Shown: positions 35,299-42,490 of the stretch, piece by piece
Layout: the number at the start of each line of letters is the position of its first letter
Position numbering within the stretch: position 1 is the stretch's first letter
From: an uncultured Anaerolineaceae bacterium
GTDB lineage: Bacteria > Chloroflexota > Anaerolineae > Anaerolineales > E44-bin32
Direction: 5' to 3'
Assembly (NCBI GenBank): GCA_964388955.1
Contig: CAYMCO010000001.1
Coordinates: forward strand, 66,951 to 130,950
DNA: 64,000 bases
Position numbers and translations under genes: made by a program
Notes under the pieces: generated by a model
Databases searched by the model: none
Told to the model about the DNA's origin: nothing
Seen by the model: only the letters and a program-made list of their open reading frames with translations

Positions 35299-36027
35299 TC
35301 ACGGGGCAGACTTCTCGTCCCGAAAATCGACGAAGCGGTAGCCGACTCCGCGCTCTGTAAGGATGTATTGAGGATTTGATGGGTCCTTTTCGAGCTTCTT
35401 GCGCAGGTAATTGATATACAGTCTCAGGTAATGGGTCTCGTCTCGGTATTCATATCCCCAGACCTTGGCAAGCAGCTGTTCATGCGGTACGACCCAACCG
35501 GCATTCTGCACCAGGTGATAGAGCAGGCGGTACTCGGTGGGGCGCAGCTTGACGAGTTTGCCATCGACCCACACCTCCCGGCGGTCGAAGTCGAGCTTCA
35601 AGCGATCATCGACCTCGATGACCTCGTGGCCAGGAGGGCTGGGCATCTCTGTTCGGCGCAGCACCGCTTTCACCCGGCTTGCCAGCTCGCGCGGGCTGAA
35701 GGGCTTGGTGATATAGTCATCCGCCCCGAGCTCGAGCCCGTGCACGCGATCCTCCTCCTCCCCCTTGGCAGTGAGCATGATGACCGGCACGGAGGAAATC
35801 TCTCGGATGAGCTGCAAGGTCTCAAAGCCGTCCATCTCGGGCATCATCACGTCCAACAGCACCAAATCCGGCAGCTGATCCCGTAATTGTTCGAGCGCCT
35901 CCACCCCTGATCCAGCTCCCAGCACCTCGAATCCATCATGCTCCAGATTCAGGCGGATGAAGTGAATCATGCGTGGTTCATCATCCACGACCAGGATTCG
36001 GCGGTGGGTCGATTGATGGGAATCCAT
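35299..36027 (-). CDS. OmpR/PhoB-family response regulator
   Basis: Receiver domain ([14 protein letters not shown]...[13 protein letters not shown]) plus a winged-helix domain ([16 protein letters not shown]...[13 protein letters not shown]...[11 protein letters not shown]). Starts 9 nt after the upstream 80-aa ORF. Confidence 0.93.
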
Positions 36028-36036
36028 GTCCCTACG

Positions 36037-36279
36037 CTAGTCTCGAACGCGGCCGATGAGCCGCTCCTCTTCGAGCGATGGGATCATCTCGATGAAGTTG
36101 ATCCGGTGCATGGGCCACATCACGGTGTTGACATTGCCCTGCAGGTAGGGGACATCTTTCCCATCCCTGCGCCGAGGGCTGTGTACGATGATGGCCTGAT
36201 CCTGCGGAGATGGCAGCTCCTCCATCTCCCCCACTACCGGATCCTCCCCCGAGATATGGACCAAAACTGTAATGGGCAT
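36037..36279 (-). CDS. Small hypothetical protein (80 aa), operon member
   Basis: ATG at 36279 with a GAGGTG RBS 5-6 nt upstream, 8 nt after the FHA gene stop codon. MPITVLVHISGEDPVVGEMEELPSPQDQAIIVHSPRRRDGKDV... No family recognised. Confidence 0.6.
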   Translation of the reverse strand: MPITVLVHISGEDPVVGEMEELPSPQDQAIIVHSPRRRDGKDVPYLQGNVNTVMWPMHRINFIEMIPSLEEERLIGRVRD

Positions 36280-36287
36280 GCGACACC

Positions 36288-39657: not shown

Positions 39658-39662
39658 CTCCT

Positions 39663-40565
39663 TCAGAGCGGCGGAAAGTGAATAAGGACGGCGGTGATGT
39701 TGTCTGGGCCGCCCGCATCGTTAGCGGCCGCCACCAGTCGTTCGCATGCCTGCTGCGGATTGTCTGCTCCCACGACAATCTCCAGCATCTTCTCGTCGGA
39801 CACTACCCCCCAAAGGCCGTCCGAGCACATCAACAGGTAGCCCGCACGTGGGATGGGATGGACAAACGCGTCCACCTCCAGATTCGCGCCTTGGCCGATG
39901 GCCCGGTAGAGGATATTGCGCTGCGGATGCACCGCAGCCTCCTCTGCGCTCACCAATCCCAGCTCCATCAAGCGGTTAACCTGGGAATGGTCCCGCGTAA
40001 TCGGCTCGAGATGGTCAGTTTCCAAGACATAGGCGCGGCTGTCGCCGACATGACCAATGGTCATCTGCCTTCCGAGCAGCATCGCCACCGTCAGGGTGGT
40101 CCCCCCGCCCGGAACGCGGTCCACCACAGCCTGGTTGGCCATCTGCAGCGCCTCCTTGACCGCATCCAAGAACGGGCCGGGTTCATGCTCATGCTCCAGA
40201 TCCATGACCCGCAGCAAAACCCGGTCCGTCAAGTGGCGCGCCACGCTGCGCACCGAAATGGCGCTGGCCACCTCGCCCGATCGATGCCCGCCCATGCCGT
40301 CGGCGACGATGAATAGTCCGAAATCAGGCAGTGCATCCTCGCCATCGGAGTTTCCTACCAGGGTGAAAAGTGCATCTTCATTGTGTGAGCGCTCCATCCC
40401 CGTCGACTGGGCGGAACCTACTTCGAGGTGCCGAAGCAGATGATCGGGGAGAACACGAGATTCCCGTGCCTCGAAAGGCAATGTCCCTGCTCGGGATTCC
40501 GGGCTCGGTTCATGGTCGGCGGAGCTACCGAAGATACGAGTGAATAAGTCTTTTATCCAGGCCAT
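39663..40565 (-). CDS. PP2C-family Ser/Thr phosphatase
   Basis: Motifs NEDALF, FIVADGMGGHRSGEVAS, CSDGLWG and GGPDNITAVLI. Confidence 0.93.
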   Translation of the reverse strand: MAWIKDLFTRIFGSSADHEPSPESRAGTLPFEARESRVLPDHLLRHLEVGSAQSTGMERSHNEDALFTLVGNSDGEDALPDFGLFIVADGMGGHRSGEVASAISVRSVARHLTDRVLLRVMDLEHEHEPGPFLDAVKEALQMANQAVVDRVPGGGTTLTVAMLLGRQMTIGHVGDSRAYVLETDHLEPITRDHSQVNRLMELGLVSAEEAAVHPQRNILYRAIGQGANLEVDAFVHPIPRAGYLLMCSDGLWGVVSDEKMLEIVVGADNPQQACERLVAAANDAGGPDNITAVLIHFPPL

Positions 40566-40600
40566 TGCCCATTCTTCTTATGTGCGTGGCGGAATCCCTC

Positions 40601-42490
40601 TCAGGTCAGCAGGGCGTAGACACGGTGATTGTTCGAGCCGAAATACAGCACGTTCTTGTGGACGACGGGAGTGCCCGTTATAGGGGCGTCCGTTTCAAAC
40701 TCCCAGCGCTTGCGGCCGGAGCGGAAGTCCAGGCAATACATGGAGCCGTCCACCGAGCCGCAGTAGAGAGAGTCCTCGTGAATGATCGGGGAGCCGTTGA
40801 CCTGGTGCTCTGTCTTGAAGCGCCACACCTCGCGGCTGGACCGGGCATCGATAGCGTAAATATGATGATCGGCACAGCCGATGAAGATCTTGCCCTCGGC
40901 GTAAGCTGGGGTCGACATGGTGGCCTTCCCGAGGCGAAAGCGCCAGATTTCCCAGCCGGCCTCCGCGGCGATGGCATAGATCGTCCAGTCCGTGGCGCCG
41001 ACATAGAGCAGCCCCTCGACCATGAGGGGGGAGGAGATGATGCCACGCTTCGCACGGAAACGCCATTTCAGCTCCCCCCGGAAGTCCGTGCAGTAGAAAT
41101 CGCCACTTTCGCTGCCGAAGTAGACGCGTTCGTCGGCGATCAGCGGCGAAGACCAGATCGGCCCCGCTGCGCCCGTCTTCCACGCCAGACTCCCAGTCTC
41201 CAGATTGACGACGTGAAGGTGGGCGTCGTCACAGCCGAAGAACAGATGGTGCTCGAAGAGGGTGGGGGATGACCGAATGGGCCCGTCGGCATAATAGGTC
41301 CAGATCAGGCCACCGTCTTCCCTGTTCAGCGCGTACAGCCGATGATCCTCGGAGCCGATGAGCACCCAGTCGTGATAGATCACCGGCCGAGTCGCGATGC
41401 CGCCCTCCGTGCCATATTTCCACTGGAAAGTCCCGCTATCCGCATCGAGGGCGTAGACGTTGTTGTCATAACAACCGATGTAGAGTGTGTCATCGTAAAT
41501 GATGGGCGTGCTGCGGACTTCGTCCTCACATTCAAAAGACCACAGCTCCTTCACCTGATTCGCGATGATGCCGATTTCCGCGGTCATATCGCGGGTGGCT
41601 TTTTCGGGAAACTTCGTCTGCCGGGCGACCTGCAGCAGTTCCTCACGCATTTGCTCCGCCGACTGCCATCGGTCTTTCGGGTCATAACCCAAGCCACGGT
41701 TGATGATTCCTTCAAGGTCAGGGGAGACCCCGGGGTTGATCTCCCGGATCGGCCGCTGGTCGAAGGAAAAGGGCGGTTCGGACTGGGGATCGCGTCCGGT
41801 GAGCAGGTGGTGAAGCGTGGCGCACAAGGCGTAGATGTCCCCAGCCGGGGAGGCCTCGCCCCGGTACTGCTCAGGCGGGGAATATCCCTCCGTGCCGATC
41901 ATGGTGCCCTTCTCACCCGGCTGGAAGAGGCGCGCGATGCCGAAGTCGATGAGCCGGATGTGGCTGTGCTCGTCCACCATCAGGTTGGACGGCTTGACAT
42001 CCCGGAAGATGACGGGCTGGGGCTTCTGGTTGTGCAGGTAGCTCAGAACAGCGCACAGCTCGATCGCCCAACCGATAACGTCGGCTTGGGCAATGAAGCC
42101 GTCTTGCTCTTCGATGATCTCTTCCAAATCGCGTCCCAGGATGAACTCCATCACCAGATAGGCGCGGTTGTCTTCCATGAAGTAGTCGTAGATTCTCGGG
42201 ATGGCGGGGTGGGAGAGGGTCGCCAGTATGTCGGCTTCGCGCTCGAAGTTGCTCACAACCATCTTCTGGATGTTGGGATCGGTCGTGGAGCTGATGACCT
42301 CCTTCACCGCCACCAGCTTGGTCACATTGGAGAAATGCAGATCCCGGGCTTTATAGACGGTACTCATGCCACCGGACCCCAACATCCCCAGGATGAGATA
42401 CCGGTCCTGCAAGGTAATCCCGGTGCGGAGCTGGCCTGTTCCTAGCTCTTTCCTGGCAGGCTCTTCGAGCGCCCGAGTTATCCTTCGCAT
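40601..42490 (-). CDS. Ser/Thr protein kinase fused to an 8-bladed PQQ-like beta-propeller, no TM segment
   Basis: Kinase motifs GSGGMSTV, VAVKEV, FRDVKPSN, DFGIARL and GTEGYSPPE. Eight repeats follow of the type VYALDADSGTFQWKY / IYAIDARSSREVWRF. There is no hydrophobic segment between the kinase and the propeller. Confidence 0.9.
   Translation of the reverse strand: MRRITRALEEPARKELGTGQLRTGITLQDRYLILGMLGSGGMSTVYKARDLHFSNVTKLVAVKEVISSTTDPNIQKMVVSNFEREADILATLSHPAIPRIYDYFMEDNRAYLVMEFILGRDLEEIIEEQDGFIAQADVIGWAIELCAVLSYLHNQKPQPVIFRDVKPSNLMVDEHSHIRLIDFGIARLFQPGEKGTMIGTEGYSPPEQYRGEASPAGDIYALCATLHHLLTGRDPQSEPPFSFDQRPIREINPGVSPDLEGIINRGLGYDPKDRWQSAEQMREELLQVARQTKFPEKATRDMTAEIGIIANQVKELWSFECEDEVRSTPIIYDDTLYIGCYDNNVYALDADSGTFQWKYGTEGGIATRPVIYHDWVLIGSEDHRLYALNREDGGLIWTYYADGPIRSSPTLFEHHLFFGCDDAHLHVVNLETGSLAWKTGAAGPIWSSPLIADERVYFGSESGDFYCTDFRGELKWRFRAKRGIISSPLMVEGLLYVGATDWTIYAIAAEAGWEIWRFRLGKATMSTPAYAEGKIFIGCADHHIYAIDARSSREVWRFKTEHQVNGSPIIHEDSLYCGSVDGSMYCLDFRSGRKRWEFETDAPITGTPVVHKNVLYFGSNNHRVYALLT

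Follow-up and report, generated by a model that had tools for sequence, protein, structure and literature searches.

A conserved Ser/Thr phospho-signalling operon of Anaerolineae as a candidate bacterial counterpart of the archaeal ArnA/ArnB phosphorylation switch

The locus described here lies in a 64,000-nucleotide stretch of contig CAYMCO010000001.1 (positions 66,951 to 130,950, forward strand) from an uncultured Anaerolineaceae bacterium. This whole stretch is called the window below, and all coordinates are window positions unless a locus is named. Between positions 35299 and 42490 the listing of open reading frames (ORFs) contains seven tightly packed minus-strand ORFs, at the positions that an earlier sequence-only reading of the window had assigned to them. 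They encode a Ser/Thr kinase joined to a β-propeller (kinase-propeller), a PP2C phosphatase, a vWA protein with a J domain (J-vWA), a vWA protein with a zinc ribbon (ZnR-vWA), an FHA protein with a zinc ribbon (ZnR-FHA), a protein of 80 amino acids (aa) and an OmpR-type regulator:

40601-42490, minus strand, kinase-propeller gene, 629 aa
39663-40565, minus strand, PP2C gene, 300 aa
38179-39657, minus strand, J-vWA gene, 492 aa
36782-38182, minus strand, ZnR-vWA gene, 466 aa
36288-36785, minus strand, ZnR-FHA gene, 165 aa
36037-36279, minus strand, 80-aa ORF with an ATG start (an 84-aa version with a TTG start is also listed)
35299-36027, minus strand, OmpR-type regulator gene, 242 aa

Stop and start codons overlap as ATGA at 38179-38182 and 36782-36785, and the other intergenic gaps are 35, 5, 8 and 9 nt; a check of the sequence confirmed the ORFs, overlaps and gaps as originally described. 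Pfam searches likewise recovered every domain that had been named, with a weak match for the zinc ribbon of ZnR-FHA and none for the 80-aa ORF. No 19-residue Kyte-Doolittle window exceeded 1.57 in any operon protein, so no transmembrane segment is evident, in agreement with the cytoplasmic location claimed for all seven. As far as the sequence tells, the seven genes form a Ser/Thr phospho-signalling unit with a common orientation, close spacing and apparently cytoplasmic products.

Residue invariance was judged over 64-79 orthologues, the number varying by protein. The catalytic and ligand-binding residues of the kinase, the phosphatase, the MIDAS (metal-ion-dependent adhesion site), the HPD motif and the FHA domain were invariant or nearly so, and a check for loss-of-function variants at the MIDAS, FHA and kinase catalytic residues found these sites intact. 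The kinase-propeller matched Pfam Pkinase at E 7e-42 and also Beta-prop_ACSF4 and PQQ_2. Its kinase domain spans residues ~30-300 and its PQQ-like β-propeller residues ~313-629, with no hydrophobic segment between them or elsewhere. The propeller region holds about eight repeats of ~40 residues each, five found by regular expression and the rest by eye, close to the eight blades first proposed. Lys-63, the F-R-D164 catalytic loop, DFG182-184 and an SPPE motif are invariant (67 orthologues). The phosphatase is of the PPM family (Pfam PP2C, E 8e-13; NCBIfam Stp1/IreP, 214 bits against a cut-off of 230), and its metal-binding motifs NED64, D89GxGG, D249G and D288N are invariant (64 orthologues). 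The two enzymes are predicted to be the writer and the eraser, respectively, of a phosphorylation switch.

J-vWA matched Pfam DnaJ at E 4e-20 over residues 6-67, as well as Pfam VWA, and J domains in the PDB matched it at E 5e-21. The J domain is N-terminal:

39418-39657, minus strand, J domain of J-vWA

Like other J domains, it carries an HPD motif (HPD34-36) between helices II and III, invariant in 79 orthologues, as are the MIDAS residues Asp-129, Ser-131, Ser-133, Thr-196 and Asp-226 of the vWA domain. In the AlphaFold model (mean predicted local distance difference test score, pLDDT, 81.7; predicted template-modelling score 0.82) the J domain (1-80) is followed by two to three β-strands (83-111), the vWA domain (122-296), a β-sandwich (298-392) and a four-helix bundle (402-482); confidence drops after residue 470, in a low-pLDDT tail. 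A Foldseek search of the PDB placed the Sulfolobus ArnA-ArnB complex first (8s05, chains A/B; E 2e-24, template-modelling (TM) score 0.73 normalised by target, 414 columns), followed by 4fx5, a vWA protein of Catenulispora, and 5a8j, an ArnB paralogue, and then by ITIH1, integrins and Sec23/24. Hundreds of homologues of nearly constant length (~492 aa) were found, all in Anaerolineae/Chloroflexota assemblies and with 53-58% identity across the order. In JGI/IMG hundreds of them (P0001-P0229) are named "Ca-activated chloride channel family protein," a misleading label for these cytoplasmic proteins that is inherited from the vWA domain common to CLCA proteins. J-vWA is the predicted phospho-target and hub of the switch.

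ZnR-FHA has an N-terminal four-Cys zinc ribbon (residues 4-21; Zn_ribbon_3, E 0.005, a weak match), from which a linker rich in Pro and Ala leads to an FHA domain (residues ~75-160; Pfam FHA, E 4e-16). Across 76 orthologues the ribbon cysteines Cys-4, Cys-7, Cys-18 and Cys-21 are invariant, as are the phosphothreonine (pThr)-binding residues Gly-80, Ser-105, Arg-106, His-108 and Asn-127; Arg-81 is present in 72 of the 76. The protein is a predicted phospho-Thr reader. Its gene adjoins a vWA gene in 79 of the 80 loci described below, often with overlapping stop and start codons.

The 80-aa protein had no family match in Pfam, NCBIfam or PADLOC, and for the vWA and FHA proteins these three collections likewise returned nothing family-specific. 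Nevertheless, its homologues mark the 80-aa ORF as a genuine, conserved gene: of 118 collected, with lengths of 75-82 aa, all but five have exactly 80 aa, and 294 representative clusters matched its profile at E<=1e-3. The gene is present in 78 of the 80 loci and in two distant ones (L085 and L087). Its AlphaFold model (pLDDT 90.7) is a five-stranded Sm/SH3-like β-barrel with a C-terminal helix, whereas the helix of Sm proteins is N-terminal. The best Foldseek matches were LSm/Sm proteins and were weak (E 6.5e-3 to 0.1, TM 0.5-0.67); the protein is possibly an adaptor or nucleic-acid binder. A remote subfamily of 130-165 aa (P0463, P0467, P0477, P0479, P0482 and P0488; loci L089-L091) has the same barrel, followed by a long insert rich in acidic residues and Pro and by an LLRRVRE helix at the C-terminus, and itself matched no Pfam family. 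These relatives lie on short contigs, with the topoisomerase I gene (topA) just downstream in two of three; the contigs bear no kinase or vWA gene, and these relatives are uninformative on operon function.

The last gene of the operon encodes an OmpR/PhoB-type response regulator (Pfam Response_reg, E 2e-33; Trans_reg_C, E 3e-26) with conserved receiver residues Asp-15/Asp-16, Asp-59, Thr-86 and Lys-108 (67 orthologues). The nearest NCBIfam models were RpaB and MtrA, and its scores fell under the equivalog cut-offs for RpaB, MtrA, PhoB and WalR. The regulator is 77-89% identical across 77 loci, no histidine kinase is encoded in the operon, and we regard it as a candidate transcriptional output or co-regulated partner of the unit. 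About 230-350 nt downstream of the operon, at 34289-35068 on the minus strand, lies a NarL/LuxR-type response regulator gene that is as strongly conserved as that of the OmpR-type regulator (74-90% identity across 49 loci). Its true start is probably an internal Met, because homologues span ~85% of the ORF and relatives are called at 217 aa. There is no histidine kinase gene near either regulator.

Relatives of the operon were collected from one genome per species, giving 80 loci, and gene order was determined by tblastn with the window proteins. The order kinase-propeller, PP2C, J-vWA, ZnR-FHA, 80-aa protein, OmpR-type regulator was kept in 80 of 80 loci, contig extent permitting, which goes far beyond chance adjacency. 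By the same survey, fni and then a polyprenyl synthase gene precede the kinase-propeller gene, and a NarL-type regulator gene and two small genes often come next beyond the OmpR-type regulator. Median identities to the window proteins are 63% for the kinase (70 loci), 57% for PP2C, 54% for J-vWA, 49% for the FHA protein, 64% for the 80-aa protein and 82% for the regulator. No locus among the 80 has more or fewer than one vWA gene, and 79 of the 80 are the single locus of their assembly. A surrounding block of ~20 kb, from an epimerase gene to FtsH, is likewise syntenic in most loci. In a distant relative of 39% identity (L084) the six-gene unit is intact though the flanking genes differ; there a small Ras/Arf-like GTPase gene and an HSP20 gene come after the unit (13183-16657). 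A Roadblock/LC7 gene follows at a slightly greater distance, and about 4.5 kb downstream there is a MoxR-type AAA+ gene.

All 80 loci are labelled Anaerolineae, which are filamentous bacteria, or Chloroflexota, with one exception. This locus (L047, JAIWHF010000010.1) is labelled "Methanosarcinales archaeon" and carries the full Anaerolineales-type block: the fni and polyprenyl synthase genes, the six genes of the unit at 52-82% identity and the NarL regulator gene. Mis-binning of the contig is the most likely explanation. A search of plasmids found none that bears the operon architecture and no match covering >=80% of a protein, and a PADLOC scan returned generic kinase and PP2C matches only, with none for the vWA, FHA or 80-aa proteins. 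The six-gene unit is a core-genome housekeeping operon of Anaerolineae and not a mobile island, and its inheritance appears to be vertical. As to the choice between defence island and core synteny, the unit lies in core synteny across Anaerolineales. The leaning of the sequence-only reading toward conflict or defence was dropped on account of the synteny and the lack of a plasmid with the architecture, while its fallback, a lineage-typical housekeeping signalling module, fits.

The spacing of the genes marks the borders of the unit. Median gaps are 7-40 nt inside the six-gene unit and about 190-200 nt at its borders; that between the polyprenyl synthase and kinase genes has a median of 188 nt (64 loci). 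In the window the largest gap on the upstream side is:

42491-42614, minus strand, putative operon promoter region, a 124-nt intergenic stretch upstream of the kinase gene

One sigma-70-like match upstream of the kinase gene (42576-42549) was not above chance. Promoter and terminator matches in 34000-43000 were no more numerous than in shuffled sequence, and the scan is uninformative on transcript boundaries.

Three loci (L085-L087), reached through the most remote cluster-linked homologues of the 80-aa protein, encode a kinase-propeller, PP2C, a vWA protein without a J domain (423-426 aa), ZnR-FHA and the small protein, and have no response regulator gene. Since they lack both, the ancient unit comprised five genes, to which the J domain and the OmpR-type regulator were added in Anaerolineales. 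In these J-less loci (L085 4626-6953 and 3020-4341; L086 likewise) the kinase is extended at its N-terminus by a long stretch that contains repeated DATRGLAP-like motifs, and in L085 and L086 four small WXG100/EspC-like genes are found immediately upstream of the unit.

Of the known systems, ArnA/ArnB, together with its Hanks kinases and phosphatase, comes closest; the sequence-only reading had missed it in favour of the TerY-phosphorylation (TerY-P) triad and the type VI secretion system (T6SS) pathway. We place ArnA/ArnB closest because the J-vWA model best matches the ArnAB complex and the ArnB layout and because ZnR-FHA has the architecture of ArnA. ArnB is a vWA domain inserted in an eight-stranded sandwich, with a C-terminal regulatory helical bundle, and ArnA joins a four-Cys zinc finger through a linker to an FHA domain (PMC12852372); the zinc finger is of the RanBP2 type. 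The zinc finger binds the β-sandwich and helical bundle of ArnB loosely, phosphorylation of bundle threonines by ArnC leads to tight binding through the FHA domain, and PP2A reverses it (PMC12852372, PMC6509490). The authors of that work state that the path from ArnAB to transcription is unknown, describe a diverged paralogue, ArnE, and mention bacterial relatives solely as isolated structural look-alikes (PMC12852372).

The J-vWA model has the split β-sandwich with the vWA domain between its parts, the intact MIDAS and the C-terminal bundle of four helices of an ArnB-type protein. ZnR-FHA, encoded by the adjacent gene, has the N-terminal four-Cys ribbon, flexible linker and C-terminal FHA domain with pThr-binding residues of an ArnA-type protein. 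In both systems a Hanks kinase and a Ser/Thr phosphatase take part, a diverged vWA paralogue exists (ArnE in archaea, ZnR-vWA here) and neither core protein has a DNA-binding domain. There are also differences. The window system is bacterial and ArnA/ArnB crenarchaeal, and the kinase and phosphatase genes lie within the operon here. The kinase has a PQQ propeller in place of the OB/TPR domains of ArnC, and the phosphatase is PP2C rather than PP2A. The J domain on the vWA protein, the Sm-like 80-aa protein and the OmpR-type regulator are further features encoded together only in the bacterial unit. By analogy, we consider it on balance probable that the locus is a bacterial counterpart of the ArnA/ArnB phosphorylation switch, inherited vertically as a housekeeping operon of Anaerolineae. 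The observations of the sequence-only reading were upheld, as were its signalling unit and its housekeeping alternative; its vWA duplication as the core of the system, its defence leaning and its comparators were not.

A candidate site for the regulatory phosphorylation is found at the end of J-vWA, in its last helix and flexible tail:

38200-38253, minus strand, C-terminal motif of J-vWA, S469-x-x-G-E-K-x-L-K-Y-G-T480-R-A-L-L-L-P, 18 residues

Ser-469, Gly-472, Lys-474 and Leu-476 to Arg-481 are identical in 79 of 79 orthologues, and Ser-469 and Thr-480 are the sole invariant Ser/Thr residues of the helical bundle. The KYGTR core is also present in the ZnR-vWA paralogue and in a J-less remote homologue. 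Thr-480 has Leu at +3, a common preference of FHA domains. By analogy with the phosphorylated helical bundle of ArnB, Thr-480 is a candidate phospho-acceptor and FHA-docking site, and it and Ser-469 are among the best candidates.

The second vWA protein of the window, ZnR-vWA, is specific to one clade. Its body is 51% identical to that of J-vWA over 417 residues (BLASTP, E 1e-140) and the heads differ: in place of the J domain it has a four-Cys zinc ribbon that is homologous to the one in ZnR-FHA. Only six protein clusters, formed at 90% identity and 67-100% identical, have this architecture; all belong to one narrow clade and come from the same few contigs as J-vWA proteins >=75% identical to that of the window. 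It is present in relatives of 93% identity (L081-L083) and absent from all 80 species-level loci, so that the description of the operon as built around two vWA paralogues does not hold beyond this clade. When the ZnR-vWA head MIKCLSCNNTEPVGSIFCTNCG was compared with the ZnR-FHA head MIRCPSCGQHEFVGTLYCSECG, 0 of 2000 shuffles reached the observed similarity score; for the linker past the ribbon the similarity was marginal, the observed score being reached by 46 of 2000 shuffles. Both genes begin with ATGATCA, overlapping the stop codon of the preceding vWA gene. ZnR-vWA looks like a tandem duplicate of the vWA gene that acquired the zinc-ribbon head of the FHA gene. The simplest, though not proven, origin would be a single tandem duplication from the linker past the J domain to the linker past the ribbon, giving J-vWA, ZnR-vWA and ZnR-FHA in the observed order.

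In a neighbour-joining tree of vWA bodies the ZnR-vWA proteins form a long branch that is sister to the main J-vWA group and outside the J-vWA proteins of their own clade. The topology within the branch mirrors that of the J-vWA partners, which is compatible with tandem duplication; given its position, the duplication may be older, or the branch may have been displaced by fast evolution. As a "Rosetta stone" domain-fusion signal, the fusion in cis hints at an interaction between the zinc ribbon and the vWA body.

The same comparison that the ArnAB authors draw, with the COPII (coat protein complex II) core proteins Sec23/Sec24 (PMC12852372), can be made for the window proteins. The arrangement of trunk (vWA), β-barrel and helical domain is alike (Foldseek E about 1e-13 for the J-vWA model), and ZnR-vWA, like Sec23/24, has a zinc ribbon in cis. 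Nevertheless, the TM score is far lower than for ArnAB (0.29-0.37 by target), a gelsolin domain is missing here, as are partners of the Sar1, Sec13 or Sec31 kind, and the ribbon of ZnR-vWA is N-terminal and not inserted. The likeness of ZnR-vWA to Sec23/24 is parallel and not ancestral, because the fusion in cis is recent and found in one clade only.

Several observations weigh against a relationship with ArnA/ArnB. The family profile of J-vWA matches ArnB weakly and over the vWA domain only (E 3.8e-9), below ITIH4 or integrin I-domains. In the C-terminal 200 residues of J-vWA Pfam detected nothing credible at E<=10, in a copy of the database whose inclusion of ArnB_C was unconfirmed, and homology to ArnB at the sequence level, including ArnB_C (IPR040929), was not found. 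ZnR-FHA matches the FHA domain of ArnA (5a8i, 8s05_C) at E 1e-3, no better than it matches other FHA domains. The kinase accessory domain and the phosphatase family differ between the two systems, and the resemblance could for that reason be a convergent assembly from common parts. Finally, what the J domain, the 80-aa protein and the regulator do in the switch is conjecture. We propose that the locus may work like ArnA/ArnB, with which it has fold and architecture in common, and do not present it as a demonstrated orthologue.

The anatomy and conservation of the operon were observed directly; the working scheme that follows is in every step an analogy with ArnA/ArnB. The cytoplasmic kinase-propeller would sense an intracellular cue and phosphorylate the bundle or tail of the vWA protein, with Thr-480 and Ser-469 as the best candidates. 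ZnR-FHA, loosely tethered by its ribbon to the sandwich/bundle surface, would then clamp tightly through FHA-pThr binding, and PP2C would reset the switch. The J domain would bring DnaK, which would remodel the complex or a MIDAS-bound client. The putatively co-transcribed OmpR-type regulator would be the likeliest DNA-binding output, perhaps together with the small barrel protein. In the clade of the window, tandem duplication would have given a second vWA protein with a zinc ribbon in cis.

Two genes of the surrounding block deserve mention. A second, stand-alone Hanks kinase of ~350 aa is encoded next to FtsH (31534-32625 and 29537-31639, minus strand); its synteny extends to 71 of the 80 loci, at a median identity of 55%. 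By analogy with ArnD beside ArnC in Sulfolobus, it could be a second input to the switch. On the same strand, 2.6 kb upstream, there is an AAA+ ATPase gene with Mg-chelatase/MoxR-like features (45123-46286, minus strand), which shows synteny in 50 loci. ATPases of the MoxR type are frequently paired with vWA proteins; here three unrelated genes separate the AAA+ gene from the operon. A specific tie between the two was considered and dropped, as the entire 20-kb block is syntenic. At the start of the window, the stretch 1-11431 has a clearly lower G+C content, 0.50-0.56, than the remainder, about 0.60-0.66, and ends at a tRNA-Arg (TCG) gene (11356-11431, minus strand); such a base composition and border are the textbook mark of genomic islands that integrate at tRNA genes.

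A rival explanation of the operon is a generic kinase/phosphatase/FHA housekeeping cluster like actinobacterial PknB-PstP-FhaA/FhaB. The FHA protein would then dock on the autophosphorylated kinase or on other substrates, and the vWA protein would be an independent J-domain co-chaperone or scaffold and not the FHA ligand. Core-genome synteny suits such a cluster, as do weak NCBIfam similarities of the FHA protein to FhaB/FipA and of PP2C to Stp1/IreP, and the link between the FHA and vWA proteins is itself drawn by analogy. The kinase also resembles AfsK-type propeller kinases, which act on several substrates. Streptomyces AfsK, the best NCBIfam match of the window kinase, likewise joins a kinase to a PQQ-type propeller without a membrane anchor; with a score of 202 bits, where the cut-off is 1300, the window kinase is not an AfsK orthologue. 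The substrates of AfsK are AfsR and DivIVA, and, to our knowledge, it is not linked to vWA or FHA genes. What speaks against the generic cluster is the pairing of the vWA and ZnR-FHA genes, which stay adjacent in the 79 loci and also in the distant J-less version, mirror ArnB and ArnA domain for domain and, in one clade, share a zinc ribbon that is fused to the vWA body. We regard this explanation as unlikely, though it retains a real share of probability.

Alternatively, J-vWA might primarily be a specialised Hsp70 adaptor in proteostasis or assembly that passes a client captured at the MIDAS to DnaK, with the kinase, phosphatase and FHA protein only tuning it and the regulator a mere neighbour. 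The invariance of both the HPD motif and the MIDAS and the near-constant length and steady identity of J-vWA across the order would be expected of such a protein, and the upstream AAA+ gene in the same syntenic block could be read in this sense. However, the proximity of that gene is unspecific, given the intervening genes and the synteny of the whole block, and no dnaK signature motif (DLGGGTFD or GIDLGTT) occurs within the window. Moreover, the older five-gene core has no J domain, which marks the recruitment of a chaperone as an addition rather than the central function. We judge this second alternative to be improbable.

TerY proteins are short single-domain vWA proteins. The TerY-P triad, defined by Anantharaman, Iyer and Aravind in 2012 as summarised in PMC11090510, comprises a TerY-like vWA protein, PP2C and a kinase whose C-terminus is fused to a zinc ribbon or, in the defence version, an OB fold; the modules are mobile and linked to Ter, restriction or CoCoNuT systems, and a metal-sensing (MIDAS) phosphorylation switch has been proposed for them (PMC11090510). 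The operon shares with them the clustering of a vWA protein, PP2C and a Ser/Thr kinase. In contrast, the C-terminus of the window kinase is a PQQ-type propeller with neither zinc ribbon nor OB fold, the vWA protein is tripartite, ArnB-like and joined to a J domain, the FHA reader is an obligatory part and the locus belongs to the chromosomal core. No PADLOC 2.0 model matched either vWA protein, in a model set whose inclusion of TerY was unverified. A TerY-P-like or other anti-phage or conflict system is therefore highly improbable: the superficial match to the triad (PMC11090510), the hits of the kinase domain to PADLOC kinase models such as PD-T4-6 and MADS6 and the wealth of conflict systems in filamentous lineages (PMC7159879) are outweighed by the generic nature of the PADLOC matches, the single locus per assembly within a conserved housekeeping block, proteins 50-89% identical, the lack of plasmid copies and of any effector domain, and the unlike kinase and vWA protein.

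The T6SS comparison fared no better. The PpkA/PppA/Fha1 triad of the Pseudomonas H1-T6SS consists of a Hanks kinase, PP2C and an FHA reader and involves a vWA domain, which is on the periplasmic part of a membrane kinase; the FHA protein scaffolds the secretion apparatus. Only the kinase/PP2C/FHA logic of this threonine-phosphorylation pathway is common to the window operon, whose proteins are all apparently cytoplasmic, and no T6SS genes were seen in the scanned parts of the window. A literature search for the combination of J domain, vWA, FHA and PP2C returned only the survey of Kaur et al. 2020, on different systems.

The counterpart of ArnA/ArnB proposed here bears on annotation, since hundreds of proteins from Anaerolineae now called "Ca-activated chloride channel family protein" can be given a defensible description. 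ArnA/ArnB is the best-studied archaeal FHA/vWA phosphorylation switch, and its downstream path to gene expression is left open by its authors. The locus shows the same two-protein architecture in bacteria, within a fixed operon that also encodes the predicted writer and eraser and the small barrel protein. In Anaerolineales the J domain and the highly conserved DNA-binding regulator come in addition. Together these parts give testable candidates for sensing, reset and readout, and, as far as the searched literature shows, the operon would be the first link of an FHA/vWA switch to Hsp70. The clade-specific fusion of ribbon and vWA body is a natural domain-fusion experiment that supports the ribbon/vWA contact of the ArnAB crystal and parallels the domain order of Sec23/24. 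In a bolder reading, which we consider rather unlikely, the operon would be a complete, self-contained bacterial switch of the ArnA/ArnB (Sec23/24-fold) kind that supplies the parts missing in archaea: a dedicated sensor kinase, a reset phosphatase, an Hsp70-recruiting J domain for active remodelling of the FHA-vWA complex and a DNA-binding output formed by the OmpR-type regulator with the Sm-like adaptor. If this is true, a self-contained switch would control a master regulator in the filamentous Anaerolineae and would provide a tractable model of the route from FHA/vWA proteins to transcription.

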